From Spirochaetia bacterium (GTDB lineage Bacteria; Spirochaetota; Spirochaetia; SZUA-6; Bin103): a stretch of 64,000 bases of DNA. Below are positions 6,161-58,967 of the stretch, in pieces. Position 1 is the first letter of the stretch; each line of letters begins with the position of its first letter. Both the position numbers and the translations under genes were made by a program. The notes beneath the pieces were generated by a model. The model was given only the letters and a program-made list of their open reading frames with translations. It was not told where the DNA came from and searched no databases. The stretch lies in the NCBI GenBank assembly GCA_965203055.1, contig OZ241863.1, positions 2,272,001-2,336,000 of the forward strand. The letters are read 5' to 3'.

Positions 6161-8266
<2,106 letters not shown>

Positions 8267-8387
8267 TTCGTGCAGGTGGGCCGGCCAAGCGCGCGCGCAC
8301 CCACCCAAACCCGCCAACCCGCCCGACACGGGTGTTGTCAGCGGTCTCGCCTTCGTCCTAACGTAGCCGGAGGAGGAGCACAACACT

Positions 8388-8924: not shown

Positions 8925-8935
8925 GGCGGTTCGGC

Positions 8936-9613: not shown

Positions 9614-9622
9614 CATCGTTCC

Positions 9623-10642: not shown

Positions 10643-10700
10643 CCGTGCAAGCCGGCCTCTACATTGTACAGCGCAGGCGGCTCGCCTACACTCCACGGCC

Positions 10701-11456: not shown

Positions 11457-11469
11457 CAGTGTCCGCCGA

Positions 11470-13361: not shown

Positions 13362-13400
13362 CCGCGGCGGCCGGGTTCCGTACTTTCCTGCGCTACTGCC

Positions 13401-14763: not shown

Positions 14764-16065
14764 TCAGACGATAAGATCGGTTCGGTGGGCGGCGGCCAGG
14801 CGGCGGGCGGCGGCGGCCGGCACCCCCGCCAGCGCGGCGAACTCGGGCCAGCGCCGCACGGCGTCCCGGACCTGACGGAGGATGTCGGCGGCGCGGCCCC
14901 GACGCATGGCGGCGTTGCGGGCGCAGGCCGCGAAGTCGCCGGCGGCGAAGCCTTCGCGTTTGCCGTTCAGCGACATCTGGTGCGCGCCGGTCCATCGCCC
15001 GGCGGGATTGTAGCTGTAGGTAAGGTCGAACGCCGGCGCCAGCGACCAGCGTCCCGACCGATCCATCAGGAAGGCGATGTTCTTGACGTGATCATCCTGA
15101 TTGCGCGCCACGACATTGAACGCCATGCGCCGAAACTGCTCTTCCACCGCCGGCTTGCCGAGGCCCAGTCGCTGAATCACGCCGAGCGCCTGCTCGTAGG
15201 AGTTTGCGCCGGGTTGATTGAAGTCGTAGTGGGCCAACGCGCCCAGTGACTGCATGTGAATCTTGTCGCCCGCGGGCGTGCGGTCGAACCGGCGGGTCAT
15301 GAAGTGATTGCGCCCGCCCTCGCGCAGGATGCGGCACTCGGCCATGGTGATGCCCGCGGCCTGCGCCATGATGTGATAGGCGTATTCGATCAGCCCATAG
15401 CCCTGCGGATCATCGAGCTCGCGGTCGCGGTTGCCCGCTACGCCGTCGAACTTCAGGAGCCAGTAGGAAAACCCGTCGCCGGCGGCGATCTGCCCGGAGC
15501 GCACCGCGCCGGTGGCGGGGTTCCAGGCGATGATCGCCTTGGCGCGGGCGCCGCCGGCCGACGTGCCCACGCGCAGGATGCTCTGCAGCGCCTGCTGCCG
15601 CTGCGGGGTCCGGAGCGATCCGGTGAGCGCACCGCGGTGGTCGAGTATCTCGCCGGCCAGCTCGACCAGGGCGGCCACCTCCACCGCGGACTGGCGGTAC
15701 TCCGGCCCGGTGGCGGGGACGAACTCCAGCGCCCCCATGCCGCGCACGCCGACGTAGCAGAGCCGTTCCACCGAGTTGAAGTCGCCGGGGATGCGGCCCT
15801 GCGCGGCCAGCCAAGCGTCGATGACGGCATTTCCGAACCGGTCCGGGAGCGAGTCGGCCAGCAGTCCCGGCAGCCCGTGGAACGTCTCCTGCGCCAGTGC
15901 CGGGAAGGAGTAGATGGCAGTGCCCAGAGGCATGGTGAGCGGGGCAACCTGCCGTCCGCTGCGCAGGAACGACGAGTTGTACTCGAAGTTGGCACTGCCG
16001 CGGCCGTCATCCCAGCTCACCGCGCCGATAGTGGTTCCCCACAGTTTCACTTCGGCCACGGTCAT
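14764..16065 (-). CDS. hipA: HipA-family serine/threonine kinase toxin with N-terminal HipA_N domain
   Basis: LADSLPDRFG, SAGGARAKA, WLLKFD, RRFDR, RNQDDHVKN and LAPAFDL. Confidence 0.9.
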   Translation of the reverse strand: MTVAEVKLWGTTIGAVSWDDGRGSANFEYNSSFLRSGRQVAPLTMPLGTAIYSFPALAQETFHGLPGLLADSLPDRFGNAVIDAWLAAQGRIPGDFNSVERLCYVGVRGMGALEFVPATGPEYRQSAVEVAALVELAGEILDHRGALTGSLRTPQRQQALQSILRVGTSAGGARAKAIIAWNPATGAVRSGQIAAGDGFSYWLLKFDGVAGNRDRELDDPQGYGLIEYAYHIMAQAAGITMAECRILREGGRNHFMTRRFDRTPAGDKIHMQSLGALAHYDFNQPGANSYEQALGVIQRLGLGKPAVEEQFRRMAFNVVARNQDDHVKNIAFLMDRSGRWSLAPAFDLTYSYNPAGRWTGAHQMSLNGKREGFAAGDFAACARNAAMRRGRAADILRQVRDAVRRWPEFAALAGVPAAAARRLAAAHRTDLIV

Positions 16066-16683: not shown

Positions 16684-17841
16684 TTACTCGTCGTCTCCGG
16701 TCAGGATCTCGAGGTACTCGTGGTAGGCGTAGGCGCGGCCGCGGCGGTTGCCGGTGATCTCGCGCAGTACGCCCAGGCTCTCGAGCAGGGCGATCGCCTT
16801 GCGAGTCGGAGGCGGGGTGAGGTCGAGCAGCTCGCACGCCCGGGGAACGGTCACCACCGGGCTGGCCGGAAGGCACTCCAGCAGCCGGATGGCGGCAACG
16901 GTCGGGCGGTCGTGGGCGATGATGCGGCGGCGGTGGCGCTCGACCAGGGCATACAGTTCCCGCGCGGCGCGGACGCCGTCGTCGGCCGCCTCGCGCACGC
17001 ATGCCAGAAAGAATGCGGTCCAGCCCTCCCAGTCGCCGCCGGTGCGCACCGCGTCCAGCCGCGCGTAGTATTCCGCCTGGGCGCGGCGGAACGCCAGGCT
17101 GAGGTAGAGCAGCGGCTGGTCGAGCAACCGCCAATGCTCGATGAGCAGCGCGATCAGCAGCCGGCCAATGCGGCCGTTGCCGTCCAGGAACGGGTGGATC
17201 GTCTCGAACTGCACGTGCGCGAGTCCAGCGCGCACCAACGGCGGCAAACCGCAATCGGCGTGCCACCAGCGCTCCAGCGCCGCCAGCGCGTCCGGCACCT
17301 CTTCCGGCGGCGGAGGTACGAACCGGGCGTTGCCGGGCCGGCTGCCGCCGATCCAGTTCTGCGAGCGGCGCAGCTCGCCCGGCTGCTTGTCCGCGCCGCG
17401 CGCTCCGCTCATGAGGAGGCGGTGCGCGTCGCGCAGCAGGCGGATGCTGAGCGGCAGGCCGTTCGGGTCGGCGAGCTGCTCGCGGGCGTAGGTGAGGGCT
17501 GCCACGTAGTTGACGACCTCCTGCACGTCGTCAGGGCGGTCGGCGCGAGCGGTCCTCTCGTAGGTAACGGCGTCCCGGAGCGTGGCCTGCGTCCCCTCGA
17601 TCCGCGAAGTGACGACCGCCTCCTTCCGCACGAACCCGTAGAGGAACCAGTCGGTGTCCGGCACCATCGCGCCCGCAACCGCCAGGCGGGACAGCGCGTG
17701 CTGCGCGCCGGCGTGGAGCTCCGCCATCGGCCCGTCCAGCGCCAGGGGAGGCTCCCGCGGCGGCAGCGGGCAGGGAACGAACGCGCGAACCTGCTCTCCC
17801 AGGGTGCTGGTGATGCGGTATCGACCGGTTCGGCGCTCCAC
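16684..17841 (-). CDS. Fic-family protein, class II (N-terminal autoinhibitory helix, C-terminal HTH)
   Basis: Fic motif HPFLDGNGRIGR, inhibitory TSRIEG, and GELRRSQNWIG. Confidence 0.92.
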   Translation of the reverse strand: MERRTGRYRITSTLGEQVRAFVPCPLPPREPPLALDGPMAELHAGAQHALSRLAVAGAMVPDTDWFLYGFVRKEAVVTSRIEGTQATLRDAVTYERTARADRPDDVQEVVNYVAALTYAREQLADPNGLPLSIRLLRDAHRLLMSGARGADKQPGELRRSQNWIGGSRPGNARFVPPPPEEVPDALAALERWWHADCGLPPLVRAGLAHVQFETIHPFLDGNGRIGRLLIALLIEHWRLLDQPLLYLSLAFRRAQAEYYARLDAVRTGGDWEGWTAFFLACVREAADDGVRAARELYALVERHRRRIIAHDRPTVAAIRLLECLPASPVVTVPRACELLDLTPPPTRKAIALLESLGVLREITGNRRGRAYAYHEYLEILTGDDE

Positions 17842-17912: not shown

Positions 17913-18695
17913 TCAGCCGCGGCCGATGTAGGGCATCCTGGTGGCCATCACCGTGAGAAAGGGAACGTTGGCATCGAGCGGCAGGCGCGCCATGTAGAGC
18001 ACCGCGTCGGCAACGTGCTGCACGTCCATGGTCGGCTCCACCATGGTGGTGCCGTTGGCCTGCGCCACGCCCTCGGACATTCGCTCCGTCATCGGCGTAG
18101 CGGCGTTGCCGATGTCGATCTGGCCGCAGGTAATGTCGAAGGGGCGGCCGTCGAGGGCGGTCGACCTGGTAAGTCCGGTGATGGCGTGCTTGGTGGCGGT
18201 GTAGGGCGCCGAGTCGGGCCGCGGCACGTGGGCCGAGATGGAACCGTTGTTGATGATCCGCCCGCCTGCCGGCCGCTGCGCCTTCATGACCTTGAACGCC
18301 TCTTGGGTGCAGAGAAAGGAACCGGTCAGGTTGGTGTCCACCACCTGTTGCCAGTCCTGCAGACTGAGTTCCTCCAGCGGCACCTTCGGCGCGCCCATCC
18401 CGGCGTTGTTGAATACCAGGTCCACGCGGCCGAACGCGCCGCGCGCGGCGGCGAACAGCGCCCGGACCGAAGCCTGGTCGGCGACGTCCGTCGGCACGAC
18501 CAGCGTTCGGGCCGGCGGCCGCGGCGGGCCGGAAGCCGCCGCCGCCGTCAGCTCCGCAGTCTCCTCCAGCGCCGGGCGGCGGCGCCCGGCCAGGACTACG
18601 GCGTAGCCGTTGGCATGCAGGGTAACCGCAGCCGCCCGCCCCACGCCGCTGCCGGCGCCGGTCACTACCGCCACTCTCATCACAGCCTCCGCCAC
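17913..18695 (-). CDS. SDR family oxidoreductase
   Basis: [17 protein letters not shown] and GQIDIGNA. Confidence 0.9.
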
Positions 18696-19506: not shown

Positions 19507-21867
19507 TCACCCCGCGGCGAGCGGCGGCAGGACGCGCCGGCCACCGCCGGTCAGCCCCATGACCACCGGCAGGATGACCAGCGAACCGACCAGCGTAGAC
19601 AGCACCAGCACCCCCAGCAGCAGCCCCGACACGGCGATAGGCGGGAACGTGGACGCGGCCAACATCAGCAGACCGGCGGCCAGCGACAGCGCGCTGATCA
19701 GAATCGAACGGCCCGACCGCACCAGCGTGAGAGCAATCGCTCCGGCGCTGGGCGCCGCGGGGCCGGCCGCCTGAGGTCCGCCGGCCTCGCGCCGGTAGGC
19801 CAGCAGCAAGTGAATGGCATGATCCACGCCGACGCCGATCGACAGCGCCGACAGCATCATGGTCACCCCGTCGAGCGGTATGTCGGCCAGCGCCATGAGC
19901 GTGAAGTTGGTCATGAGGCCGGCAACCACCGGAATCAGGGTGTAGGCGCCGAACAGCAGCGAGCGGAAGCCGACCGCGGTCACCAGGAAGACCAACACCA
20001 CCGAAACGATGGCCGAGCGCACGTGGTCGAGCAGCAAGTCGTCGGCCACCGACAGAATCGCCATCCCGTTGCTCCAGATCTCCACTTCCAGATCGGCCGG
20101 CACGATGGCATGCACCAGCTCCTCGATCCGGGCCGCGGTCTCCCGGAACTCCTGCTCGTTGACCAGCCGTCCGCCATCCGCCGCTTCCGTGATCCGCACG
20201 TTCACGGTGAGGCTGGAAGCCTCCCGGTCGATGGTGGATTGCAACATCGCGTCGGAGGCGCGGTCCTGCGGGAGCTCGTGCAGCAGCCGCGCGAACACAC
20301 CGATGAGCGCCCGGTTGCGCGGCACCTGATAGCTCCCGCGCACGGCCAGGTTCATCCGGCTGAGCTGGGTCACGAACGAGGCCACGTAAGCGACGTCCGG
20401 ATCATCCCGAAGGGCCTGTTCCAGATCGGCGACGCGCTGCAGTCGTTCGGGATCGAGAAAGTATCTTCGCGCCGCCGCGGGAGCGGTCAGCGTGATGTTG
20501 ACGTCGAGCGCGCCGACCAGCTCGCGTCCGACGAACAGGTTGTCCTGGATGAGCTGCGAGTCGCGGCCGAACATGCGCGTGATGTCGGTGTCATATCTGA
20601 GGCGGCCCAGCGACGCGAAGCAGACCACGGCCAACGCCGCGGCGGCCGCGAGCACCACGAACTTCCAGCGCGTCTCTCCCAATCGAGCCAGCGCGCTCAG
20701 GATCGGCGGCGCCTTGGGCGGCTTGCGGGACCGGCTTGGAGGCGGCAGCAGCGTCAGGCAAGCCGGCAGAAAGAACAGCGCCAGCAGCGCGCAGTGGGCA
20801 ATTCCGACCGCCGTGATCAGGCCAAACTCGCGCACCTGGACGAGCGATCCGGTGAGCAGGCTGCTGAACCCGATGATGGTGGTAACGGCGGCCAGCACGA
20901 TGGTGGCGGTAACCCGGGCCATCGCCCACCTGACGCTGGCTTTCAGCAGTCCCTGGCGGCTGGCGCTGGTATGGTAATCGGTCAGCACGTGCACGCTGTA
21001 GGCGCTGCCGAGGCTGAGAACGAGCGGCGGCGTCATGATGCTGGTTATCGTGAAGGAGAGCCCCAGGAGACGCATCGTGCCGATGGTCCAGACCGTCCCT
21101 ACCAGCACCACGAGGAGCGGCATCGCTACCGTCAGAGCGCCGCGAAAGGTCGCGTAGTAGGCGAGCATGATCACCACCAGCGCGGCAATCAGGAGGCGTG
21201 GAAGATCAGTGGTAAGCCGCTGCTTCAAGCGGTAGTCGAAGGTCGGATTGCCGCCCCAGCGAATGGTGTAGTAGTCAGCGACGGGAGCCGTGATGCGCTC
21301 CAGTTCAGTGAACAGGGCGTGATAATCGTCGCGCCGCGGAACGTTGAATACCGCGCCGATCGTGTTGCCGTCGGGCGCCACGAGCAACTTGCGGCTCGCC
21401 GGATCCTCCAGCAGTCTGCGCTTGAGGAGCGCCGCCTCGCCGGCGGTGCCGGGCGCGCGCCCGCCGGCCGCGATCGGTGTGATCGAAATAACCCCGCGTT
21501 CGGTGGTGCGAAACGTCAGCAGGTTGAAGGGCGTGATGCTGCCGGTAACTTCGTCCAGCGCTTCGATTTGCCGAATGGCGCCGTCCAGCGCCGCGAGCGC
21601 GTCCACCGCAAACGCATCGCCGCTCTCGACGGCCATTATCAGAAAGTCGCGTTCGGTGCGCGATTGGCCGCGCTCCCGGAGCAGGCGCGCGACCTCATCC
21701 GGAAACAGCTCGTCGAGATTGGAGCTGACGTCGACGCCGGCGGCCAATACGCCAAACACCAGGGTCAGAACCAGCACCGCGGCGATTACCTGCCAGGCAC
21801 GGCGCTGAGCGAACCCGACGATGCGGAATGCCAGTCCGGCGAGCGGTACGCGAGATTCCTGTGTCAC
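19507..21867 (-). CDS. MMPL/RND-family lipid transporter
   Basis: Two repeated blocks of transmembrane helices with large extracytoplasmic loops; LGSAYSVH, TTIIGFSSL and GVGVDHAIH. Confidence 0.85.
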   Translation of the reverse strand: MTQESRVPLAGLAFRIVGFAQRRAWQVIAAVLVLTLVFGVLAAGVDVSSNLDELFPDEVARLLRERGQSRTERDFLIMAVESGDAFAVDALAALDGAIRQIEALDEVTGSITPFNLLTFRTTERGVISITPIAAGGRAPGTAGEAALLKRRLLEDPASRKLLVAPDGNTIGAVFNVPRRDDYHALFTELERITAPVADYYTIRWGGNPTFDYRLKQRLTTDLPRLLIAALVVIMLAYYATFRGALTVAMPLLVVLVGTVWTIGTMRLLGLSFTITSIMTPPLVLSLGSAYSVHVLTDYHTSASRQGLLKASVRWAMARVTATIVLAAVTTIIGFSSLLTGSLVQVREFGLITAVGIAHCALLALFFLPACLTLLPPPSRSRKPPKAPPILSALARLGETRWKFVVLAAAAALAVVCFASLGRLRYDTDITRMFGRDSQLIQDNLFVGRELVGALDVNITLTAPAAARRYFLDPERLQRVADLEQALRDDPDVAYVASFVTQLSRMNLAVRGSYQVPRNRALIGVFARLLHELPQDRASDAMLQSTIDREASSLTVNVRITEAADGGRLVNEQEFRETAARIEELVHAIVPADLEVEIWSNGMAILSVADDLLLDHVRSAIVSVVLVFLVTAVGFRSLLFGAYTLIPVVAGLMTNFTLMALADIPLDGVTMMLSALSIGVGVDHAIHLLLAYRREAGGPQAAGPAAPSAGAIALTLVRSGRSILISALSLAAGLLMLAASTFPPIAVSGLLLGVLVLSTLVGSLVILPVVMGLTGGGRRVLPPLAAG

Positions 21868-22090
21868 GAAGTGAGCATGCCAGTGGAGCGGGGCCCCTAG
21901 TATCGTATGTTGCGCCGCCGCCGGTCAATCCCGGCCCCGGCGCCGAAAGCGCGGAAAGCGCGGAGCACGCGCACCGGAGAGCGCGGCGCGGCCGGGCGCG
22001 GCCGGCACCGGCGCGGCAGCCGGCACTGTACAGCGCCGGTATCGTGATCTATAGTGATGGCCGGCTCGCTTTGGCGAGCGCCAATGTCTC

Positions 22091-23377
22091 ATGCGCATCT
22101 GCATGGTCGCCCTCGGCACCCAAGGCGATGTCCGGCCGCTGCTTGCCCTCGCCGCGGGGTTGCGAAGCGCCGGCGAGCACGTGACCGTCGCCACGCACCG
22201 CTACTTCGAGCGGATGGTCGTCGAGCGCGGCCTCGGCTTTGAGCCGATCGAAGGGAATCCGCGCGACATCATAGACAGCCGCCTCGGCCGCGGCTGGGTG
22301 CAGTCGGGCACCAATCCGCTGCGGTTCACCCGCTACCTGCGGGCGCTGGCCGGCTCGCTGGGCCAGGAGCTGATGGGCGACTGCTACCGCGCCTGCCGCG
22401 GCGCGCAAGCGATCATCACCGGGCTGCTCGGCTACTTCGCCGCCGGCCACGTCGCCGAACGGCTCGAAGTGCCGTTGGCGGCGGCGTTTCTGCAGCCGGT
22501 CACCCCCAGCCGCCACCTGCCCTCGGTATTCTTCGCCGACGTACGCGCCCCGGCGCCGGCGCGCCGCTACTACAACTTCGCCAGCCACGTGCTCGTCGAG
22601 CTGATGTTCTGGAGCATGCTGCGGCGGGAAGTGAACCGCGCGCGGGCCGCGGTCCTCGGACTGCCGGAAGTGCCGCGGCTGCGCACCTTTGCGCGCAACC
22701 TGCGCGGCAACCCGGTGCTGTACGGGTTCAGCCCGACGGTGCTTCCCCCGCCGGCGGACTGGCCGCCCGAGGTACGGGTAACCGGTTACTGGTTCCTCGA
22801 TGAGAGCGGCGCCGGCCGGCAGCCGGAGGCCGCCCTCGCCGCCTTCCTGCAGCGCGGCGCGGCGCCGGTCTACGTCGGGTTCGGCAGCATGAGCGGCAGC
22901 CACGAGGAGGCCCTCACCGCCATCGTGCTCACCGCGTTGCGCCGCTGCGGGCTGCGCGGCGTCCTTGCCACCGGCTGGGGCGGCCTCGGCGCCGCCCGGC
23001 TCCCGGACGACATGCTGATGCTGGATTGGGCGCCCCACGACTGGCTGTTCCCGCGCAGCGCGGCGATCATCCATCACGGCGGCGCCGGTACCACGGCCGC
23101 CGGGCTGCGCTGCGGCGTGCCGCAGGTCATCGTGCCGTTCTTCGGCGATCAACACTTCTGGGGGCAGCGGGTGCACGAGCTGGGCGCCGGTCCGGCCCCG
23201 GTGGCGCGGCGCCGGCTCACCGCGGCGCGCCTGACCGCGGCGCTGGCCGAAGCGGCCGGCGATCCCCGGATGCGGGCGCGCGCGGCCGCCGCCGGGGCGC
23301 GCATCCGCGCCGAGGACGGCGTCGGGAACGCGGTGGCGGAGGTGCGCCGCGCGCTGCGGGAACGGGTTCCGGCGTGA
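22091..23377 (+). CDS. GT1 glycosyltransferase, sterol-glucosyltransferase-like
   Basis: GTQGDVRP, LYGFS, VTGYWF, VYVGFGSM, HHGGAGTT and FGDQHFWG. Confidence 0.9.
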   Translation: MRICMVALGTQGDVRPLLALAAGLRSAGEHVTVATHRYFERMVVERGLGFEPIEGNPRDIIDSRLGRGWVQSGTNPLRFTRYLRALAGSLGQELMGDCYRACRGAQAIITGLLGYFAAGHVAERLEVPLAAAFLQPVTPSRHLPSVFFADVRAPAPARRYYNFASHVLVELMFWSMLRREVNRARAAVLGLPEVPRLRTFARNLRGNPVLYGFSPTVLPPPADWPPEVRVTGYWFLDESGAGRQPEAALAAFLQRGAAPVYVGFGSMSGSHEEALTAIVLTALRRCGLRGVLATGWGGLGAARLPDDMLMLDWAPHDWLFPRSAAIIHHGGAGTTAAGLRCGVPQVIVPFFGDQHFWGQRVHELGAGPAPVARRRLTAARLTAALAEAAGDPRMRARAAAAGARIRAEDGVGNAVAEVRRALRERVPA

Positions 23378-24390
23378 GCGGCGCGCGCGGGCAGGCGCCG
23401 GTGGCGCTGGTCACCGGCGCCTCCGGCATGATCGGCGGCGAGCTGGCGGCGCAACTCGCCGCCGGCGGCCGGCGGGTGCGCTGCCTGCTGCGGCCGGCGA
23501 GCGCCGGCGACCGGCTCGCGGCGCTGCCGGTCGAGGTGGTGCGCGCCGATTTCGATGACCCGGCCGCCCTCGCCGCGGCGATGGCCGGAGTCTCCCGCGT
23601 CTACCACCTCGCCGGCTATCTGCACGCCGGGGCGCCGTTCAGCGGCGGCGAGGACTACGCCCCCTATCGCGCCGCCAACGTCGACTTGACGGACCGCCTG
23701 CTGGCCGCCAGCGCGCGCGCCGGCGTCGAGCGGTTCCTGTTCGCCAGCACCACCGGCGTCTACGGGGCGGCGGCCGCCGCGCCGATCGCCGAAGATGACC
23801 CCACCGAGCCATTCTCGGCCTACGGCCGCTCCAAGCTGGAGGCCGAAGGGCTGGTGCGCGCCTGGGCCCGGCGCGGCCTCGACGTCACCATCGTGCGGCC
23901 CAGCGCCACCTACGGAGCAGGCGATCGGCACTTCCTGCCGGCCGCCCTGGCGCTGGCGCGCATGCGGCGGATACCGCTGGTCGACGGCGGGCGCCATCTG
24001 GTCGACTTCGGCCACGTCAGCGACGTCGCGCGCCTCATGCTGCTGGCCGGCGAGTCGCCGGCGGCCCGCGGCAAGACCTACAACGCCGCCTCCGGGCATC
24101 CGCAGCCGCTGCGCGACCTGTTCTCCGAGTACGCTTCCCTGACCGGCAAGCCGGCCCCCGTGATCGTGCCGGTGCCGGCCGGCCTGTGCCGGGCGCTCGG
24201 GCCGCTGCTGCAGGCGGCGGTAGGCGTCTGCGCGCCCGCGCTGCGGCACCTCGTTACCCGTGACGGGCTGGCCTATCTGGCGCGGGACGTAAGCTACGAC
24301 ATGACCCGCGCCGGCGAGGACCTTGGCTTTCGCCCGCGGGTGGACTTTCGCACCGGCCTGGCGCTGACGCTGCCGGCGGCCCGCGCCTGA
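23374..24390 (+). CDS. Extended SDR (NAD-dependent epimerase/3beta-HSD family)
   Basis: TGASGMIG, YHLAG, YGRSK and VRPSATYG; the GTG start overlaps the GT1 stop. Confidence 0.85.
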   Translation: MSGARGQAPVALVTGASGMIGGELAAQLAAGGRRVRCLLRPASAGDRLAALPVEVVRADFDDPAALAAAMAGVSRVYHLAGYLHAGAPFSGGEDYAPYRAANVDLTDRLLAASARAGVERFLFASTTGVYGAAAAAPIAEDDPTEPFSAYGRSKLEAEGLVRAWARRGLDVTIVRPSATYGAGDRHFLPAALALARMRRIPLVDGGRHLVDFGHVSDVARLMLLAGESPAARGKTYNAASGHPQPLRDLFSEYASLTGKPAPVIVPVPAGLCRALGPLLQAAVGVCAPALRHLVTRDGLAYLARDVSYDMTRAGEDLGFRPRVDFRTGLALTLPAARA

Positions 24391-24436
24391 GCAGACCGCC
24401 CGCCAGGCCGGAGCCTGCCTGCCGCGCGCCGCGCTT

Positions 24437-26467
24437 TCAGAACCGGTAGCTGGCGCAGGCCACCTCGATGCCGGGACCGACGGCCAGAAACAGGCCCAGG
24501 GCGCCGGGCTGCGCGGCGCGCGCCGGGATCGCCTCCCAGCCGGCGGCCGCGGCGGAAGTAAACAGATCCTCCGTCCCGCAGGCCACCAGCCGTGCCGGGT
24601 CCAGTTCCAGGGCGGCGGCGAGGCGGGCCAGAAACCGGGGCGAGATCTGCGGCGGCAGGATCACCGCGAAGTCGTCCAGGGTACGCTGCTCCTCGCGCAG
24701 CAGCGCGCCTACGCCGGCGGCCAGCGCATCCAGATAGTAGTCCTGCAGGCGGGGGTCGCTGACGACGCGCAGCCGCGGCGGGCCGGAGGTGTCGGTCTGC
24801 GCGTACGCATGATACCGCTCCAGGTGCTCCGGCCGACTGGCGAAGTAGAAGCTGCGAAATCCCGTCGCGTCCCCGCTGCGCTCCAGCCGCAAAGCCGATC
24901 CGGCGCTGGCCGCGGCCAGCGGGGGCTGCCCCGCCACCGGCGTCTCGCCATACTCCGAGGTGGCCACCACGCCGGTGCCGCCGCGCGACAACAGCAGCCG
25001 CCCGGCCACCTGACAGGCCATGAGCACGCCCGGCGGCCCGTTCATCAGGTCGAACGCCAGCAACTGGCGCGTGCCGGCGTCGGCGCAGGATCCCTTGAGC
25101 CCCATCTCGCGCGCCACCAGCGTGGCCAGCGCCGGTTCGGAAACGAACGCTTCGCGGTACACGCCGGAGTACACCAGCAGTGCCAGATCCGGGGCGGCGC
25201 CGGAGGCCAGCACGCGCGCCGCGGCGCGCGCCGCCAGGGCGACGCTGCCGCCGGTGCCCTCGCCCGCGGGGCGGCAGGTGGCGGCCGCGGCGATGCGAAC
25301 CCGTTCGCCGGCCGGGATGGCGCGGTAATAGTCGCCCGCAGCGCCCGCCCCGACGCGCGGCTCCGGCGCCGGGGCAGGCGCCGCGGGCGCCGGCGGCGGA
25401 GCCCCGCGCCCGTTGGCGCCGGCGGCGAACTCCCCCACTCGATACTGCGCCACGCCGATGGTGATTCCGGACGCCTGGATGCTGAACATCACGCGCTGGC
25501 CGGGCCGCACCGCGGTGCCGTCGATCAGGTCCTTGAGCGCCACCCAGTGCGAGGTGGTGGCCGTGTTGCCGCGGTGCTTGAGGTTGTCCACCATGTTGCC
25601 GGTGTGGCACATCTTGCGCCCGAAGCGGCGGTTCATCAGGCGGGTGGCTTCCTTGATCGAGTTGGAGGAAGTCTGATGCGGGATGTAGTAGAGCGGATCG
25701 TCCACTACCCGGCCGCCGGTCATCAGCGCGTGAAAGTGGGCGACGATGTCGCGCAGCGCCGCCCGCGCCAGCGCCACCGAATCGGTGAACATGATGGCGC
25801 CGTAGGTCTCCGCCGCATGAGCGGTGCACAGGTCGGCGTGCTCCGGCACGGTATACAGGTCGAGGAACTCGAACCCCGTCCCCTGCTCCAGCAGCAGGCA
25901 GACGCCGGCGTCGCCCAGCGTCAGGCACGCCAGGCGCTGGTCATGGCTGCCCTCCAGTTCCCGTTGCGCGGTGGCGGTGAGATGGGTGATGTACTCGCCG
26001 CTCACCACCAGCGCGCGGCGGATGTCGCCGCGGCGGATCAGCTCGTCCACCACCAGGATCGCCGTGAACACCCCGGCGCAGGCGTTGCCGAGGTCGAACG
26101 CCGCGGCGCCGTGCAGCCCGAAGTGCTTGCGCAGCACGGTGGCCGTGGTCGGCTCGATGTTGTAGTTGAGCGGCGCGTCCTGCTTGGAGATGTTGGCCGC
26201 GACGACCAGATCGATGGCCGACGGGTGATGGCGCGACTGCGCCAGACATCGCGCTACCGCGGCCTTGGCCAGGTCGACCGAGAATTCGCCGTCGCCGGCC
26301 ATCCGCCGGGTGGCAATGCCGGTCATTCGCTCCAGCGGCACCCGCGGCCGCCGCCGGCACCCGTTGAGCACCGTCCGGGTAGTCACTTCCCGCTCCGGGA
26401 GATAGACGCCGAGGCTCTCGACGCTGGTGTTGGCGGTCGTCCCCCAGGCAGCCGGCTCCGCGCTCAC
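24437..26467 (-). CDS. Tandem two-domain OleA/FabH-like condensing enzyme (second domain lacks the catalytic Cys)
   Basis: Domain 1 has IEPTTA, FDLGNACAG, LTLGDAG, PHQTS and GNTATTS. A Pro/Ala linker follows. Domain 2 has SEPALA and FDLMNGPPG. GAGGA precedes GTG 26467. Confidence 0.8.
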   Translation of the reverse strand: MSAEPAAWGTTANTSVESLGVYLPEREVTTRTVLNGCRRRPRVPLERMTGIATRRMAGDGEFSVDLAKAAVARCLAQSRHHPSAIDLVVAANISKQDAPLNYNIEPTTATVLRKHFGLHGAAAFDLGNACAGVFTAILVVDELIRRGDIRRALVVSGEYITHLTATAQRELEGSHDQRLACLTLGDAGVCLLLEQGTGFEFLDLYTVPEHADLCTAHAAETYGAIMFTDSVALARAALRDIVAHFHALMTGGRVVDDPLYYIPHQTSSNSIKEATRLMNRRFGRKMCHTGNMVDNLKHRGNTATTSHWVALKDLIDGTAVRPGQRVMFSIQASGITIGVAQYRVGEFAAGANGRGAPPPAPAAPAPAPEPRVGAGAAGDYYRAIPAGERVRIAAAATCRPAGEGTGGSVALAARAAARVLASGAAPDLALLVYSGVYREAFVSEPALATLVAREMGLKGSCADAGTRQLLAFDLMNGPPGVLMACQVAGRLLLSRGGTGVVATSEYGETPVAGQPPLAAASAGSALRLERSGDATGFRSFYFASRPEHLERYHAYAQTDTSGPPRLRVVSDPRLQDYYLDALAAGVGALLREEQRTLDDFAVILPPQISPRFLARLAAALELDPARLVACGTEDLFTSAAAAGWEAIPARAAQPGALGLFLAVGPGIEVACASYRF

Positions 26468-26643
26468 GAATAGGTCCTCTTGTCGTTCACCAATGCTCCA
26501 GTTCGCCGCGGCCACCATACCACAACCGCGCACGTTAGTCGCCGGTCCGCCCGCCCCCGGCTCCGCGCGCTCCCGCCGCCGTTCCCGTTGACCGGGAGCG
26601 GCAACAAGTGTAGCGTGGCGCCCGCCTGGGAACACCGCGCCCG

Positions 26644-28056
26644 ATGTCCGATCACTCAGCCCGAATTCGCGCCCTCCACGACCGGCTCAGAGGCATCGCG
26701 CTGCGCTGGGCCATGGGCAGACCGGTCGACGACGCGGCCGCCCGCGCGGTCCGGCGGGCCGCCATCAGCGCCAATCACCGCCACTACTTCGAACGCATTC
26801 CTATCTACCGCCGGCTTGCCGACCAGGCCGGGATACCGGCGGAGGCGACCTTCGAGCAGATCAGCCGCGAGCTGATGTCCACCGACCACATCTTCAAGTC
26901 CTACCCGCAGGCCCTGCTGGACGGCAACGATTACGGCGCCATGAACGAGTGGCTGCGGCAGGTGTTCGACCGCCCGGTGGAGGTGCCGGTCGCCGGCCTC
27001 GACTCGGTGGACGGGTGGCTGGAGCGGCTGCGCGCGGGCGGGATTCACACGGTGTTCAGTTCCGGCACCAGCGGCCAGATCTCCTTCGTCCCGCGCGACG
27101 GGTATACCTGGTCGCTGCTCACCGGGCTGAGCACCTCCTACGTTCCGCTGTTCCAGATGCGCCAGGGCATTGCGCGCGGGTGGGAGCGGCTGGCGGCGCG
27201 CAGCGCGGCGCGGCTGCTGGCGCCGCAGCGCTTCACGCAGTTCTTTCAACGCCGCGGGCTGCGCAGCTTCGACGGGTTCTTCCTCTCCTTCTCCGGCGGC
27301 ACCCAGGGCACCCAGGTGGTGGGGCAGGTGCTCGCCGGCATGGTCGCCCGCGCCACCTTCCTGTTCGACCTGCAGCTTTCGGCCACCGCGGTGCGGGCGC
27401 TGGTGCGCGGGGCGGCCAGCGACCTCGAGCAGCGCCTGGCCGACGAATTCCTGGAAGCGACGGTGCAGCGCCGGGAGGAAAACTACCGCCGGATGCTGGC
27501 GGCGATGCGCGCCTCGGTCGCCTCCCGCCGGCGCGCGCTGGTGTTCGGCGCGCCGTTCATGATCAAGGAGTTCTGCGACTGGCTGGTCGCCGCCGGCGAG
27601 GAGCTCGCGCTGCGTCCCGGCAGCATGCTGTTCCACGGCGGCGGCTGGAAGAGCTTCGAGGGCGACCGCATCGACGAGTCGGCGCTGCTCGCCCTGGTGG
27701 AGCAGGCCACCGGCGTGACCCCCGGCAACGTCAGCGAAGGCTACTCCATGACCGAGGCGCAGGTGGTGTTTCCGCGCTGCCGGGAGGGACGCTTCCACGT
27801 ACCGCCGATCACCGAGACGGTGATCTTCGACGACGCGCTGGAGCCTCTGGAGGGCGATGACGTGTATGGCGCGCTCGGCTTCCTCGATCCCTTCGCCGCC
27901 TGCTATCCGGGGTTCATCATCACCGGCGACAACGTGCGCCGGCGGACGCAGGAGTGTCCCTGCGGCGTCAGCGGACTCACCATCACCGACGTCGCCCGCG
28001 CCGCGGGCCGCGAGGTGAAGGGATGCGGCGGCATCATGGCCGCCATGCAGGGCTGA
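26644..28056 (+). CDS. LuxE-like acyl-protein synthetase
   Basis: FSSGTSG, GGGWKSF, YSMTE, YPGFIITGD and C-terminal REVKGCG carrying the acyl-acceptor Cys. Confidence 0.82.
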   Translation: MSDHSARIRALHDRLRGIALRWAMGRPVDDAAARAVRRAAISANHRHYFERIPIYRRLADQAGIPAEATFEQISRELMSTDHIFKSYPQALLDGNDYGAMNEWLRQVFDRPVEVPVAGLDSVDGWLERLRAGGIHTVFSSGTSGQISFVPRDGYTWSLLTGLSTSYVPLFQMRQGIARGWERLAARSAARLLAPQRFTQFFQRRGLRSFDGFFLSFSGGTQGTQVVGQVLAGMVARATFLFDLQLSATAVRALVRGAASDLEQRLADEFLEATVQRREENYRRMLAAMRASVASRRRALVFGAPFMIKEFCDWLVAAGEELALRPGSMLFHGGGWKSFEGDRIDESALLALVEQATGVTPGNVSEGYSMTEAQVVFPRCREGRFHVPPITETVIFDDALEPLEGDDVYGALGFLDPFAACYPGFIITGDNVRRRTQECPCGVSGLTITDVARAAGREVKGCGGIMAAMQG

Positions 28057-28058
28057 CG

Positions 28059-29681
28059 TTGACCGCCCCGACCAGTGGCCGCGCGCCGGCCATCAGCGTC
28101 GACTCCGAGGGAGTGATCCGGCTGCCCGCGCTGGTGCGCGGCCGGTTGATCATGCCGCCGGCGGTGCCCCGCCGGGAGATCGAGGCCGCCTTCGCCGGCG
28201 CCGCGAACGGGCCGGCTGCGGAGCCGCCGGCGCTGGTCAAGTTGCCGGAGGCGTGGGTGTTGCGCGAACCGATCCTGGACCGCGCCGCGATGCGCGCCAC
28301 CGGCGGCTACCAGTATCAGGTCCTGCCGGCGGTGAATCCGCGGCAGTTGCCGGAGGACGATCTCGACGCGCTGGCGGAGGAGCTGTACGAGCTCCCGTTC
28401 GCCGAAGTGCTGAGCTATCTCGACGGCCTGCGGCAGGCCTACGCCGGCGACCGCGAGCTGCAGCGGCAGGTCAAGGCGCTGGCGCGGCAGACCTCGGAGG
28501 CGCCCGATCCCTACGTCGACGCCGGCTTCGCGGTGTTCCCGGCGATGCTGGAGCGCGGCGTGGCCGAGGCGATGGTGGACGCCGAGCTGGCGGCCTGGCA
28601 GATTCCGGGGCGCCGCTTCCTGGACGGTTGGGTCGAGGTGCCGGGCACCCTCTACCCGGCGCCGGTGCACCTGATCCATGCCGGGAACCTGCCGCCGATT
28701 GCCGACTACGACCCGGCGCAGGCGGCGCCGCGCATCCGCGCGCTGCCGACGCGCCAGCTTCACGTCACCGCCGGCAACTCGCCGCTGGTGCCGCTGGCCT
28801 CGCTGCTGCGCGCCCTCTGGACCAAGTCCGCGGCCACCGTCAAGCTGCCCTACGGGGCGACTCTGGCCGGCGCCTACCTGGCCCAGTTGGCCGCCCACAC
28901 CTTTCCCGACCACCCGCTCACCCGCCACCTGTCGGTGCTCTACTGGCCGGGCGGCGACCGGCAGTTCGAGGCGCCGCTGTTCCTGCCGGGACGCTACGAC
29001 CGCATCGTGGTGTGGGGCGCTCCCAACGCGGTGCAGTCGGTCACCGAGCGCGCGGCCTTCACCAAGACGGTCACCTTCAACCCGCGCTACGGGGTCAGCC
29101 TGATCGGCCGCGAGGCGTTCGCGCACCTGGAACAGGTGGTGAGCCGCGCGGTGTGCGACACCCTGATCCAGGGTCAGAAGGCGTGCATCGCCTCGCAGAT
29201 CCACTATCTGGAAGGAGATCAGGCGCAGGCGGAACGCTACGCCGCGGCGTTGCGCGACGAGTTGGGGCGCTGGGACGGCTTCGCGCCGGCCGCGCTGAGC
29301 CGGTCGCAGCAGGGGCAACTGCGGCGCATGAAGCGCGGCAGCTTTCTGGGCGCCACCTGGTTCGAGAATCAGGCCGGCGGGCAGTTTCGCTCCGCGGTGG
29401 CGGTGATGCCGAACGAGTTCAACATCATGGAGCATCCGCTGTGCCGGCTGATCGTGGTGCGTCCGGTGCCGGAGCTGGAGCAGGCGCTGCAGTACCTGCA
29501 TCCGGGGGTGGCCACCGCCGGCGTGTTCCCGGAGGCGCGGCGCCGGGCGCTGAGCGTGCGCATCGGGACGCGCGGCGTCAGCAACGTGCCGCCGCTGGGA
29601 CAGGCCGGCTACACCTGGCCGGGGATGCCGCACGACGGCATGCTGGTGCTCAGCGAACTGGTGGACTGGAAGACCGCCTAG
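28059..29681 (+). CDS. LuxC-like acyl-CoA/acyl-protein reductase (ALDH fold)
   Basis: TAGNSP, VKLP, VVWGA, QKACIASQ (catalytic Cys) and PHDG..VLSELV. The start codon is uncertain. Confidence 0.8.
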   Translation: MTAPTSGRAPAISVDSEGVIRLPALVRGRLIMPPAVPRREIEAAFAGAANGPAAEPPALVKLPEAWVLREPILDRAAMRATGGYQYQVLPAVNPRQLPEDDLDALAEELYELPFAEVLSYLDGLRQAYAGDRELQRQVKALARQTSEAPDPYVDAGFAVFPAMLERGVAEAMVDAELAAWQIPGRRFLDGWVEVPGTLYPAPVHLIHAGNLPPIADYDPAQAAPRIRALPTRQLHVTAGNSPLVPLASLLRALWTKSAATVKLPYGATLAGAYLAQLAAHTFPDHPLTRHLSVLYWPGGDRQFEAPLFLPGRYDRIVVWGAPNAVQSVTERAAFTKTVTFNPRYGVSLIGREAFAHLEQVVSRAVCDTLIQGQKACIASQIHYLEGDQAQAERYAAALRDELGRWDGFAPAALSRSQQGQLRRMKRGSFLGATWFENQAGGQFRSAVAVMPNEFNIMEHPLCRLIVVRPVPELEQALQYLHPGVATAGVFPEARRRALSVRIGTRGVSNVPPLGQAGYTWPGMPHDGMLVLSELVDWKTA

Positions 29682-30685
29682 TCGCCGGCCGGCGGGGCCG
29701 CCGCCCAGGAGCGCGCCAGGCGCCGCAGCCCCTCGGCGATCGACACCGGCGGCGCATAGCCGAGATCGCGGCGCGCGGCGCTGATGTCGAACCAGTGCGA
29801 CGAGGAGATCTCCCGCACCAGGAAGCGGGTCAACGGCGGGGCCGCGGCGGGCCGCAGCAGGCGGCCCGCCCCCTCCGCCAGACCGGCCGCGGCCAGCGCC
29901 AGCCAGCGCGGCACGCGGCGCCGCACCGGCGGCGCGCCGGCCAGTCGCAGCAGCCGGCCCACGAACTGCCACAGGTCCACCGGCTCGCCCTGGGAGATGA
30001 AGTAGGCGCGGCCCGCGGGGCGCGCGCCCGGCGCGAGCCGCTCCACCGCCAGCGCGTGCGCTTCCGCGGCGCTGTCGATGTAGGTCACGTCGATGCGAAA
30101 CGGACCGCGCCCGATCCGCACCAGGCGCCCGCGCCGGGCGCGGGCGATCAGCGCCGGCACCAAGTGGCGGTCGCCGGGGCCCCAGATCAGGTGCGGGCGC
30201 AGCGCCGCGGCGGCCAGCGCGCCGTCGTTGGCCGCCAGCACCGCCTGCTCCGCCAGGGCCTTGGTCCGCGCATAGGGCGAGTCGTAGTGGTCGGGATAGG
30301 GTATCGACTCATCGACGCCGCGCAGGTCGCGGCCGGCGAACACCACGCTCGGCGAGCTGGCGAACACCAGCCGCTCCACCCGGTGGGCGCGGCAGCCGGC
30401 GATTACCGCCTCGGTGCCGGCCACGTTTACCTCGTGGAAGCGGCGCGCGGTGCCCGGAGTGCCGGGTACCAGCGCCGCGGCGTGCACTACCGCCCGGCAG
30501 CCGGCGCAGGCCGCGGCGGTGGCGCGCGGGTCCGCCAGGTCGCCGCGCACCTGCTCCACGCCGCAGGCCGCCAGCGCCGGGTAGCTGCCCCGCGCGTAGC
30601 TGCGCACCTGATGGCCGCGGCGCAGCAGCCGCTCCACCACGGCGCGTCCCAGGAAGCCGCCGCCGCCGGTCACCAGCACCTTCAC
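29678..30685 (-). CDS. OleD-like 2-alkyl-3-oxoalkanoate reductase (3beta-HSD family)
   Basis: VLVTGGGGFLG, YPAL..GVEQVRGDLAD, YARTKALAE, LRPHLIWGPGD, YFISQGEP and PLTRFLV follow OleD as I recall it. Confidence 0.75.
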   Translation of the reverse strand: MKVLVTGGGGFLGRAVVERLLRRGHQVRSYARGSYPALAACGVEQVRGDLADPRATAAACAGCRAVVHAAALVPGTPGTARRFHEVNVAGTEAVIAGCRAHRVERLVFASSPSVVFAGRDLRGVDESIPYPDHYDSPYARTKALAEQAVLAANDGALAAAALRPHLIWGPGDRHLVPALIARARRGRLVRIGRGPFRIDVTYIDSAAEAHALAVERLAPGARPAGRAYFISQGEPVDLWQFVGRLLRLAGAPPVRRRVPRWLALAAAGLAEGAGRLLRPAAAPPLTRFLVREISSSHWFDISAARRDLGYAPPVSIAEGLRRLARSWAAAPPAGD

Positions 30686-30693
30686 GGCGCGGC

Positions 30694-31188
30694 CTAGGCG
30701 GGGTCGGAGCGCGCCGGCGCCGGTCCCGCCGGCCCCCCGCTCGTCGGCCCCCCGCGGCCGGCCAACTTGCGCCACGTGGCGTACAGGAACCAGCAGATGA
30801 GGAGGTTGGCCGGCAGCGTGACGAGCAGCGCAGCGGTGCCGAACGGCGTGATGCTCTCGGCGAAGACCAGATAGGTCCAGTCGGCGAACAGCTCGCTGAG
30901 GCGGATGCCGGTCACCAGCAGCAGCCAATGCGCGGCGCGGCGCCAGCGCGGCAGGGCCAGAATCTGCACCGCGGCGAACGCGGCCCAGATGGCGCCGGTG
31001 CGGCGCAGCAGCCCCTGCGGGTCGACGTAGGCGGCGTCGTGCAGGAGGCGGTACCAGATCTGCGGCAGCAGGAACGCCCCCACCGCGACCAGCAGGTCGA
31101 ACGCCACCAGCGCGATCAGGATCACGTCCACCAGCCGCCCGCGCGCGGCGCCGATCCGGGCATTACTCACGTAGGTCGATGACAACAT
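30694..31188 (-). CDS. Small integral membrane protein (about 4 transmembrane helices), probably co-transcribed with the OleD-like gene
   Basis: Hydrophobic helices; ends 8 bp before the next start. Confidence 0.6.
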   Translation of the reverse strand: MLSSTYVSNARIGAARGRLVDVILIALVAFDLLVAVGAFLLPQIWYRLLHDAAYVDPQGLLRRTGAIWAAFAAVQILALPRWRRAAHWLLLVTGIRLSELFADWTYLVFAESITPFGTAALLVTLPANLLICWFLYATWRKLAGRGGPTSGGPAGPAPARSDPA

Positions 31189-31249: not shown

Positions 31250-32266
31250 ATGTTCGCCTGGGTATTGCACGGGCGGCGCGACCTGCGCCGCGAGCGGCGG
31301 CCCGATCCGGCGCCGGCCGCCCACGAAGTGGTACTGCGCGTCGAGCGGGTCGGGATCTGCGGCAGCGACGTCCACTACTACCGCGACGGCCGGGTGGGGG
31401 CGTTCGTGCCGTCCGGCCCGTTCGTGCTCGGCCACGAAGTCGCCGGCGAGGTGGTGGCGGCCGGGAGCGCGGTGGAGCGGCTGCGGGCCGGCGACCGGGT
31501 GGCGGTCGATCCCTCGCAGGCGTGTCTGCGCTGCTCCTGGTGCCGGAGCGGGCGCAGCAACCTGTGCCCGGAGATGCGCTACTTCGGCAGCGCGGCCAGC
31601 GATCCGCCGACCGACGGCGCGCTGTGCGAACTGAAGGCGGTGCCGGCCGCCAACTGCCATCGGCTCGGCGACGGCCTGAGCTACGCCTGCGGCGCGCTGC
31701 TGGAACCGCTGGCGGTGGCGTGCCACGCCGTGCTGCGCGCCGGCAGCCTGGCCGGGCGCCGGGTCGCGGTCAGCGGCGGCGGGACCATCGGCCAGCTCGT
31801 GGCCGCGGTTGCGCGCGCCCTCGGCGCCGGCCACGTGACGCTGGCCGACCCGCGCCCCGCGGCGCGCGCCGCGGCCGCGCAGCGCGCCGACGAGGTACTC
31901 GATCCCGCCGCCGGCGAGGCGCCGGCGGGCGGCCCTGCGCAGGTGACCTTCGAAGCGGCCGGAGCCGCGGACTCGCTGCGCTGGGCGCTGGCGCATACCG
32001 CGCGCGGCGGCACCGTGGTCCAGATCGGGACGCTGCCGCAGCAGGTCACCGCGCCCTTCAATCTGGTCATGGCCAACGAGCTGCGGGTGCTCGGCAGCTT
32101 CCGCTTCGCCGGCGGCTTCCAGGTCGGCGCGGCGCTGCTCGCCGCCGGCCGCATCGAGGTCGAATCGCTGATCAGCGCGGTGCTGCCGCTGGCGCAGGCG
32201 CCGGCGGCCCTGGAACAGGCGGCCGGCGATCCGGCCGCGCTCAAGCTGCAGGTCAGCCGGCAGTGA
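31250..32266 (+). CDS. Zn-dependent polyol/idonate dehydrogenase-like protein
   Basis: GICGSDVHYY, GHEVAG, LEPLAVACHA and LGSFRF. Confidence 0.85.
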   Translation: MFAWVLHGRRDLRRERRPDPAPAAHEVVLRVERVGICGSDVHYYRDGRVGAFVPSGPFVLGHEVAGEVVAAGSAVERLRAGDRVAVDPSQACLRCSWCRSGRSNLCPEMRYFGSAASDPPTDGALCELKAVPAANCHRLGDGLSYACGALLEPLAVACHAVLRAGSLAGRRVAVSGGGTIGQLVAAVARALGAGHVTLADPRPAARAAAAQRADEVLDPAAGEAPAGGPAQVTFEAAGAADSLRWALAHTARGGTVVQIGTLPQQVTAPFNLVMANELRVLGSFRFAGGFQVGAALLAAGRIEVESLISAVLPLAQAPAALEQAAGDPAALKLQVSRQ

Positions 32267-38881: not shown

Positions 38882-38882
38882 C

Positions 38883-58882: not shown

Positions 58883-58967
58883 GGCGCCCCCTACCATACC
58901 ATTGCATCCTGCGGCGGGCCGGCGCCGGCCGCCGCCCCGCCGGCGGTGACGCGCCGGTGACGCGCCG

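Follow-up and report, generated by a model that had tools for sequence, protein, structure and literature searches.

The stretch of DNA analysed here (the window) comprises 64,000 nucleotides of contig OZ241863.1 from a Spirochaetia bacterium and carries eight clustered genes at positions 19507–31188. They include a two-part condensing enzyme (KS2), an OleD-like reductase, a LuxE/LuxC-like pair, a glycosyltransferase and a transporter. With a probability of about 0.45, we suggest that the cluster would carry out head-to-head fatty-acid condensation, 3-keto reduction, reduction of the carboxyl group by LuxE/LuxC and then glycosylation. Since the window has a G+C content of ~70%, reading frames were picked by third-position G+C together with family matches. 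The list of open reading frames (ORFs), the third-position G+C frame check, Pfam and NCBIfam agree on the following genes, given with a divergent neighbour. SDR stands for short-chain dehydrogenase/reductase, HSD for hydroxysteroid dehydrogenase and Zn-ADH for zinc-dependent alcohol dehydrogenase.

19507–21867, minus strand: MMPL/HAE3-type RND transporter with a sterol-sensing-like domain (PF03176, PF12349, TIGR00921)
22091–23377, plus strand: GT1 glycosyltransferase, sterol 3-beta-glucosyltransferase-like (PF06722, PF03033, PF00201)
23374–24390, plus strand: SDR1, an extended SDR of the HpnA/OleD/3-beta-HSD kind (PF01370)
24437–26467 (alternative start 26518), minus strand: KS2, didomain KAS III-like condensing enzyme of 676 aa (PF08545/PF08541 in the N-half only)
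26644–28056, plus strand: LuxE-family acyl-protein synthetase (PF04443)
28059–29681 (alternative start ATG 28023), plus strand: LuxC-family acyl-protein/acyl-CoA reductase (PF05893)
29678–30685, minus strand: OleD-like extended SDR (NF042422, NF042423, PF01073)
30694–31188 (alternative start 31251), minus strand: small membrane protein of an unnamed family, without a Pfam or NCBIfam match
31250–32266, plus strand: Zn-ADH, the divergent neighbour (PF08240, PF00107)

The eight genes and their arrangement in short divergent and convergent units agree with the preliminary description of this DNA. The GTG start of SDR1 at 23374 overlaps the stop codon of GT1 (TGA 23375–23377), the TTG start of LuxC at 28059 lies 2 nt past the LuxE stop, and the stops of LuxC and the OleD-like gene overlap by 4 nt. 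Only 8 nt separate the end of the membrane-protein gene from the start of the OleD-like gene, and hence these two probably form one operon. A promoter and terminator scan of the MMPL–GT1 gap returned consensus-like hexamers only, on both strands and with no evidence of function, and no RNA run was listed as containing the stretch.

By its sequence, KS2 is one 676-aa chain of two KAS III halves. Pfam and NCBIfam detect a FabH-type domain in the first half only; the top NCBIfam matches are to FabH-type models, and every NCBIfam model matching KS2 stays below its own cut-off. In a profile comparison of the two halves (hhalign, probability 98.9%, E 2e-17), the C-half proves to be a KAS III domain that has diverged. 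Glu-Pro, Cys, His and Asn are all conserved in the N-half of 82/82 aligned relatives, while the C-half keeps Glu-Pro in 82/82 and has Cys, His and Asn at the triad positions in 0/82. Among solved structures, KS2 matches FabH at up to 55 bits over ~325 residues and OleA at 22–27 bits over 145 residues. The ‘tandem OleA-like thiolase’ proposed earlier is thus not a pair of OleA copies, given the C-half without a triad and the closer match to FabH (55 versus 27 bits). The AlphaFold model of KS2, of good overall confidence (pLDDT 83.6, pTM 0.90), has a disordered linker at residues 352–376.

The glutamate of the N-half, followed by proline, lies 25 residues before the Cys and aligns with the Phe of an F-P-S stretch in E. 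coli-type FabH. In OleA, the Glu contributed by the other subunit is the base for non-decarboxylative Claisen condensation, and Glu117 is followed by Pro in all but two of the homologues aligned (PMC7064751). A comparison of related enzymes gives the tetrads as E117/C143/H285/N315 for OleA, E100/C125/H275/N304 for NocG and E105/C129/H281/N310 for PpyS, with 24–26 residues from Glu to Cys in all three (PMC9486936). Judged by these residues, KS2 has the Glu/Cys/His/Asn pattern that marks non-decarboxylative Claisen ketosynthases. Tetrad and spacing are the same as in the stand-alone enzymes NocG, PpyS, CorB and MxnB (PMC9486936). However, those are single-domain proteins of ~330–360 aa, some of which use carrier-bound or beta-ketoacyl substrates, whereas KS2 has an extra degenerate second domain. 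With OleA, KS2 shares the tetrad, but it differs in sequence proximity, in not being a ~340-aa homodimer and in its gene company, which of oleB, oleC and oleD includes only an OleD-like gene. On sequence grounds, KS2 falls outside the OleA family.

A closer parallel is offered by the paired enzymes of lipstatin and nocardiolactone synthesis. LstA has the triad, and LstB lacks it and depends on an essential E60 (PMC12141560). Likewise, the nocardiolactone preprint describes NltB as lacking the triad with an essential E57, and the NltAB product as a 2-alkyl-3-oxo acid (bioRxiv 10.1101/856955). In both systems, one partner holds the triad and the triad-less one supplies the Glu, and the 2-alkyl-3-oxo acid is reduced by an OleD-type SDR, LstD or NltD; KS2 likewise has an OleD-like neighbour (PMC12141560, bioRxiv 10.1101/856955). 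Because the triad stands in one half and Glu-Pro alone in the other, KS2 resembles an LstAB/NltAB-type pair joined in a single polypeptide, a likeness drawn from conserved residues via the published descriptions. By analogy, the Glu of the C-half would act across the interface on the N-half; the KS2 residues thus predict a catalytic Glu from the triad-less half. KS2 differs from LstAB/NltAB in that the partners are fused within 676 aa and in that the genome has no beta-lactone synthetase, with LuxE/LuxC instead. We consider a head-to-head condensation by KS2 quite probable. When short proteins related to the C-half alone (LstB/NltB-like) were sought, only 5 were found, mostly apparent pieces; the search relies on shared words and so does not show that such relatives are absent.

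To see where KS2 relatives occur, one genome per species was scanned, which gave >585 loci, and the neighbourhoods of 80 of these were retrieved. Six of the 80 are spirochaete metagenome-assembled genomes (MAGs) with 66–86% identity and the same cluster as the window. At a further locus, L061 (Acidimicrobiia), positions 6411–11869 hold, in order, a haloalkane-dehalogenase-like hydrolase (OleB-like), an OleC-like gene (589.8 bits on NF045786, which models olefin beta-lactone synthetase), an OleD-like gene (438 bits) and KS2. By gene content, this is an ole-type cluster with KS2 in the oleA place; KS2 is cut off by the end of the contig, beyond which a separate oleA could lie.

KS2 relatives have other settings too. 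Bacteroidota loci combine KS2 with a polyketide synthase (PKS) of KS-AT-DH-KR-ACP architecture, a fatty-acyl-AMP ligase (FAAL), a luciferase-like monooxygenase, a P450 and a phosphopantetheinyl transferase (PPTase), and C-A-T-KS2 fusions occur in Mycobacterium and Acidobacteriota. Loci of the PKS or non-ribosomal peptide synthetase (NRPS) type lie within L015–L088 (e.g. L015:969-14151, L017:1-12004, L050:1-12001). KS2 stands with a LolA-like gene and an MMPL/sterol-sensing RND transporter in a Betaproteobacteria MAG (L073:9926-16755) and a Nitrospiraceae MAG (L087:6796-13230), a pairing that suggests an exported envelope lipid. No description of the fused KAS III didomain family was found in the literature searched, from which subscription journals were mostly missing.

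The OleD-like SDR scores 393 bits on NF042422 (cut-off 580) and 330.5 bits on NF042423, and the next family reaches 131.5 bits, so that its top score exceeds that of any family beyond the two OleD models by >260 bits. It also matches PF01073 (166.7 bits; 3-beta-HSD/extended SDR fold). The NF042422 cut-off lies above the OleD-like genes of L061 (438 bits) and of the metagenome locus L103 (409 bits) as well. The window copy is 51% identical to that of L061 and 45–46% identical to those of L102, L103 and L129. An OleD-like gene adjoins KS2 in L061 and shares a cluster with it in the window, in L102/L103 and in the spirochaete loci. We propose that this enzyme is a 2-alkyl-3-oxoalkanoate reductase, and its reduction of the condensation product to a 3-hydroxy acid seems likely, only slightly less so than the condensation itself. 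Overall, the resemblance to OleABCD comprises the Glu-Pro/Cys/His/Asn signature of KS2, the 393-bit OleD-like match and the company that a KS2 relative keeps with ole-like genes in L061. The departures from OleABCD are that KS2 stands outside the OleA family as a didomain monomer versus a homodimer, that the genome has neither oleB nor oleC, and that the expected product, unlike an olefin, would keep its oxygen functions.

LuxE passes the PF04443 cut-off (62.2 bits versus 24.9) and falls far short on NF052244 (52.6 versus 550); LuxC likewise passes PF05893 (131.5 versus 21) and falls short on NF052251 (80 versus 750). In the solved LuxC–LuxE complex 7xc6, LuxE matches chain E (45.5 bits) and LuxC chain A (55.8 bits). 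In LuxE, a Cys stands 9 residues before the C-terminal end, and in LuxC the Cys of a Q-K-A-C motif is invariant (16/16 aligned relatives); these two may correspond to the acylated cysteines of the Photobacterium proteins. The pair therefore resembles LuxC–LuxE of bioluminescence in passing the Pfam cut-offs, in matching both chains, in the LuxE–LuxC gene order and in the conserved Cys. It differs in scoring far below the equivalog cut-offs, in the longer N-terminus of the window LuxC and in lacking luxAB (luxD was not searched for). The LuxC-like family, ~530–575 aa long, is ~50% identical in MAGs labelled Pseudomonadota, Acidobacteriota, Chloroflexota and Thermodesulfobacteriota, and the window pair belongs to this broad non-luminous family that spans several phyla.

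A LuxC profile search of metagenomes yielded 80 loci for examination. LuxE adjoins LuxC in 64 of them; of the 16 remaining loci, 14 have a contig end immediately upstream of LuxC. The further neighbours vary and include classical SDRs and acyl-CoA-dehydrogenase-like genes. KS2 is found in five loci (L089, L102, L103, L104 and L129). L089 is the spirochaete cluster again, with a KS2 identical to that of L011; L102–L104 come from one population and L129 from a related one. In the latter two populations the gene order is different, and identity to the window is 45–46% for the OleD-like protein, 50–54% for LuxE, 49–50% for LuxC and 37–38% for KS2. The core of KS2, OleD-like, LuxE and LuxC genes thus recurs in at least one lineage far from spirochaetes. 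A locus with LuxE/LuxC and no KS2, L092, has an adjoining extended SDR of the HpnA kind (305 bits) rather than the OleD kind (88 bits).

Several other genes accompany the metagenome module. A B12-binding radical-SAM (DUF4070) gene flanks it in L102–L104 and L129, a fatty-acid desaturase lies beside it in L102–L104, L103 also has a PAP2 phosphatase and a PPTase, and L129 has a type III PKS-like gene. These flanking genes could modify the chains.

We put the chance that LuxE adenylates the branched acid and LuxC reduces it to an aldehyde at about even. The pair could instead turn ordinary fatty acids into aldehydes or alcohols, with a branched hydroxy acid coming separately from KS2 and the OleD-like enzyme; the products would then be joined as an ester or acetal, or each glycosylated on its own. 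LuxE/LuxC are widespread without KS2, often by classical SDRs and acyl-CoA-dehydrogenase-like genes, which suggests a generic acid-to-aldehyde/alcohol module. However, Pfam and NCBIfam find no acyltransferase or wax-synthase gene in the cluster, and the LuxE proteins most similar to that of the window (50–54%) include the KS2-linked copies of L102–L104 and L129. The latter point is weakened by L105 and L128, which are equally similar (51–52%) and have no KS2 on their short contigs. We regard such a separate use of fatty acids as improbable.

It is still more improbable, and by a good way, that LuxE replaces OleC as a beta-lactone former, with the 3-OH attacking the acyl-AMP to give a dialkyl beta-lactone that is then opened or reduced. 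LuxE does adenylate carboxylates, and OleC and NltC form beta-lactones from the same substrate class by adenylation, according to the nocardiolactone preprint (bioRxiv 10.1101/856955). But LuxE keeps its C-terminal Cys and has LuxC alongside in nearly every locus, features that fit a thioester hand-over and reduction, not lactonisation.

The genome that holds the window (G000) is one contig of 4.56 Mb, 95.9% complete. The best OleC model match in it is 67 bits (cut-off 900), the OleB-like protein of L061 used as query matches nothing, and there is no luxAB-like pair. A single luciferase-like monooxygenase gene lies ~2 Mb from the cluster, and the only LuxC-family gene is the cluster's own. The earlier statement that oleBC and luxAB are missing therefore holds genome-wide. 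A search for an LpxC domain in this 95.9%-complete genome found none, which suggests a cell possibly devoid of lipid A. Nor did the genome yield a squalene or oxidosqualene cyclase domain, and an origin of sterols within the cell was rejected on this ground.

GT1 (PF06722 75.6, PF03033 41.7 and PF00201 39.2 bits) has the GT28-type N-terminal and UDP-sugar-binding C-terminal domains of a GT-B enzyme. Its closest solved relative is the yeast sterol 3-beta-glucosyltransferase (5xvm/5gl5; 230 bits, E 5e-67, residues 5–421), and the next one scores 124 bits. We propose that it glycosylates a lipid alcohol. This likeness to a transferase acting on a lipid hydroxyl is one reason for the head-to-head reading of the cluster. 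SDR1 (PF01370 154 bits; HpnA model TIGR03466 135.9, NF042422 118 and GalE 70.9 bits) is proposed to be an aldehyde or ketone reductase. The MMPL protein matches PF03176 in two stretches (94.3 bits, cut-off 20.5), the sterol-sensing domain PF12349 (28.7 bits) and the HAE3 model TIGR00921 (193 bits versus a cut-off of 351.9); we propose an exporter. The small membrane protein, whose language-model look-alikes are unnamed proteins of 134–143 aa, has copies 64–82% identical in L009–L011, L013, L014, L089 and L170. Zn-ADH (PF08240 96.1 and PF00107 55.9 bits; NF007375 245 bits, below the cut-off) adjoins the cluster in every spirochaete locus that reaches that far, and possibly, if uncertainly, belongs to it for an aldehyde/alcohol step.

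Within the order, the cluster was seen in a single genus. Of the 10 further genomes of the genus to which the window belongs, 8 have LuxC, and the two in which it was not found are 81% and 90% complete; it is found in 0/13 genomes of the sister genus and 0/37 genomes of other families in the order. KS2 (≥62% identity) occurs in 9 of the 10, and the tenth, G402, has only a 41% KS2 paralogue in a different context. A phylum sample of 400 genomes holds no full-length KS2 outside the genus, and only single-domain matches at 25–40% identity in one other family. GT1 copies 65–88% identical stand at the same position in L009–L014 and L170. The transporter is less constant. An 82% MMPL orthologue lies beside GT1 in G410/L013 only, a 41–43% MMPL takes the same position in G403/L170, and none adjoins the cluster in L010, L011, L012 or L014. 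The MMPL gene previously counted in the cluster is indeed present in the window, but it is not constant and stands beside the cluster only in the window's own subclade, which makes it an accessory member.

Some features of single genomes were also recorded. In G410, the closest relative (L013/G410:C1:1344158-1346263), KS2 is split in two overlapping frames covering residues 12–430 and 409–693, which is either a frameshift or an assembly error. In G403 (L170:17090-18643), a 517-aa ORF with a weak HNH-endonuclease match lies between the membrane-protein and Zn-ADH genes. A second MMPL paralogue at 58950–61376 (plus strand), 36% identical to that of the cluster, lies ~30 kb downstream, and in G401, G405, G408 and G410 its spacing to the cluster is similar.

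At one end the cluster borders on a classical SDR and a DtxR-type repressor, at the other on two porin-like genes. One could suppose that there is no single pathway, that the genes are neighbours by synteny in one genus, and that at least GT1, SDR1, MMPL and Zn-ADH serve another end such as glycosylation and transport of host sterols. The synteny in the genus indeed extends to DtxR, the classical SDR and the porins, and the position of MMPL varies. Moreover, GT1 is sterol-glucosyltransferase-like, MMPL has a sterol-sensing-like domain and the SDRs are in the 3-beta-HSD family. On the other hand, the four-gene core turns up beyond the genus with its genes rearranged, the reading frames of GT1 and SDR1 overlap, and the OleD-like protein scores 393 bits on the OleD model versus 94.7 on the sterol enzyme SdmB. 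With no squalene or oxidosqualene cyclase found in the genome, any sterol would come from outside. Finally, in G406 the genes from GT1 through Zn-ADH are missing together. Taken together, we judge such a lack of a single pathway unlikely.

The classical SDR at 17913–18695 was considered as a cluster member and rejected, since tblastn gives no significant match between it and the classical SDR of L102–L104; the apparent link was a product of single-linkage clustering. Farther upstream lie a Fic-domain gene (16684–17841, minus strand), a HipA-like kinase (14764–16065, minus strand) and an RNA-ligase-like gene (13362–14453). At 36001–40000 the window contains a low-G+C island (0.52 versus ~0.70), probably foreign DNA, with a gene for a 1034-aa SNF2-family helicase at 35777–38881.

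Gene content, conserved residues, the recurring four-gene core and the lack of oleB, oleC and luxAB are observed; each reaction of the proposed head-to-head pathway, with its substrates, its place in the sequence of reactions and the end product, is inferred, as follows. KS2 would work as an intramolecular LstAB/NltAB-like pair in which the N-half Cys carries an acyl chain and the C-half Glu deprotonates it; condensation with a second acyl thioester would give a 2-alkyl-3-oxo acid. The OleD-like SDR would reduce this to a 2-alkyl-3-hydroxy acid. In place of OleC/OleB, LuxE would adenylate the carboxylate and LuxC would reduce the resulting acyl-enzyme to an aldehyde, which SDR1 and/or Zn-ADH may convert to a 2-alkyl-1,3-diol. 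The sterol-glucosyltransferase-like GT1 would glycosylate the diol and, in the window's subclade, the adjacent MMPL would move the product to the cell envelope. This exact diol glycoside is a tentative assignment, rather less likely than not. The mycolate route (Pks13, CmrA, MmpL3) follows the same logic of 2-alkyl-3-oxo condensation, 3-hydroxy reduction, a sugar carrier and MMPL export. It differs in that its type I PKS and classical SDR are unrelated to the enzymes here and in that the acid is esterified to trehalose, the carboxyl being neither reduced nor O-glycosylated.

Simplexide-type aglycones are mid-chain secondary alcohols. The main rival to the diol pathway is a glycoside of this type (simplexide, clathroside): the KS2 product would lose CO2 to give a ketone, an SDR would reduce it and GT1 would glycosylate the alcohol, leaving LuxE/LuxC a side role such as chain recycling or supply. 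The beta-keto acids of OleA and NltAB are described as decaying to ketones (bioRxiv 10.1101/856955). Furthermore, the nearest solved relative of GT1 glycosylates a secondary hydroxyl, the sterol 3-beta-OH, and the sponge-metagenome-labelled runs X3–X6 contain 0.63–0.69 of the stretch's sampled words. However, this scheme has no use for LuxE, LuxC and one reductase, yet LuxE, LuxC and the OleD-like gene recur with KS2 in a lineage without GT1, and simplexides bear a disaccharide versus the one glycosyltransferase of the cluster. We therefore hold it to be unlikely, though less so than the other alternatives. A literature search on simplexides and gene clusters found nothing relevant, and one on glycolipids of Spirochaeta aurantia found nothing.

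A number of observations weigh against the head-to-head pathway with LuxE/LuxC reduction. KS2 is nearer to FabH (55 bits) than to OleA (27 bits) in sequence, and Foldseek with the KS2 model returns FabH and OleA alike (TM to target 0.79–0.88), so that the fold does not settle the chemistry. The OleD-like, LuxE and LuxC proteins all score below the NCBI equivalog cut-offs. LuxE or LuxC is not found near 74 of the 80 KS2 loci (34–49% identity), and many of these adjoin or are in frame with PKS/NRPS modules, which implies that substrates in the family are varied and perhaps carrier-bound. Conversely, 75 of the 80 LuxE/LuxC loci have no KS2. The metagenome counterpart of the cluster has no GT1, SDR1 or MMPL. 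A quick tree does not place the two KS2 groups linked to LuxE/LuxC as sisters, although an AU test does not reject a single clade either (p = 0.159). In G406 (L169, G406:C4:2391000-2410900), KS2 (62% identity) lies between DtxR and a methyltransferase/isoleucyl-tRNA synthetase without other cluster genes; GT1, SDR1, LuxE, LuxC, the OleD-like gene, the membrane protein and Zn-ADH are all absent from that region. Finally, the spirochaete loci represent one genus whose synteny includes unrelated flanking genes, and they thus amount to one observation of linkage, not several.

The pathway outlined in the preliminary description gains from the tetrad, the L061 context, the recurrence of the core and the absence of oleB, oleC and luxAB. 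It had to give up the OleA family, two active thiolases and the place of MMPL and GT1 in the core. The co-occurrence it anticipated elsewhere is seen for KS2, OleD-like, LuxE and LuxC in an unrelated lineage, with GT1 and MMPL as lineage-specific add-ons. As it had supposed, no account of the gene combination was found in the literature searched, which mostly lacked subscription journals and may thus miss a description published elsewhere.

The known outlets of head-to-head fatty-acid condensation are olefins (OleABCD) and beta-lactones (lipstatin, nocardiolactone). The cluster suggests a third, in which the carboxyl is reduced by LuxE/LuxC and the product is then glycosylated, and it belongs with the head-to-head Ole/Lst/Nlt lipid pathways as a variant, with a KS2 that is not of the OleA family. 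Because no LpxC was found and near-identical DNA occurs in sponge-metagenome-labelled runs, the product could be an envelope glycolipid of a sponge symbiont. That an uncultured, apparently lipid-A-less spirochaete genus makes glycerol-free two-tailed glycolipids through a fused LstAB-like enzyme, an OleD-like reductase and a LuxE/LuxC branch is, as a whole, rather unlikely. If true, it would provide a bacterial gene basis for sponge very-long-chain-alcohol glycosides of the simplexide and clathroside type, and would give a first function to the didomain KAS III family, which has >585 genome loci in many phyla.

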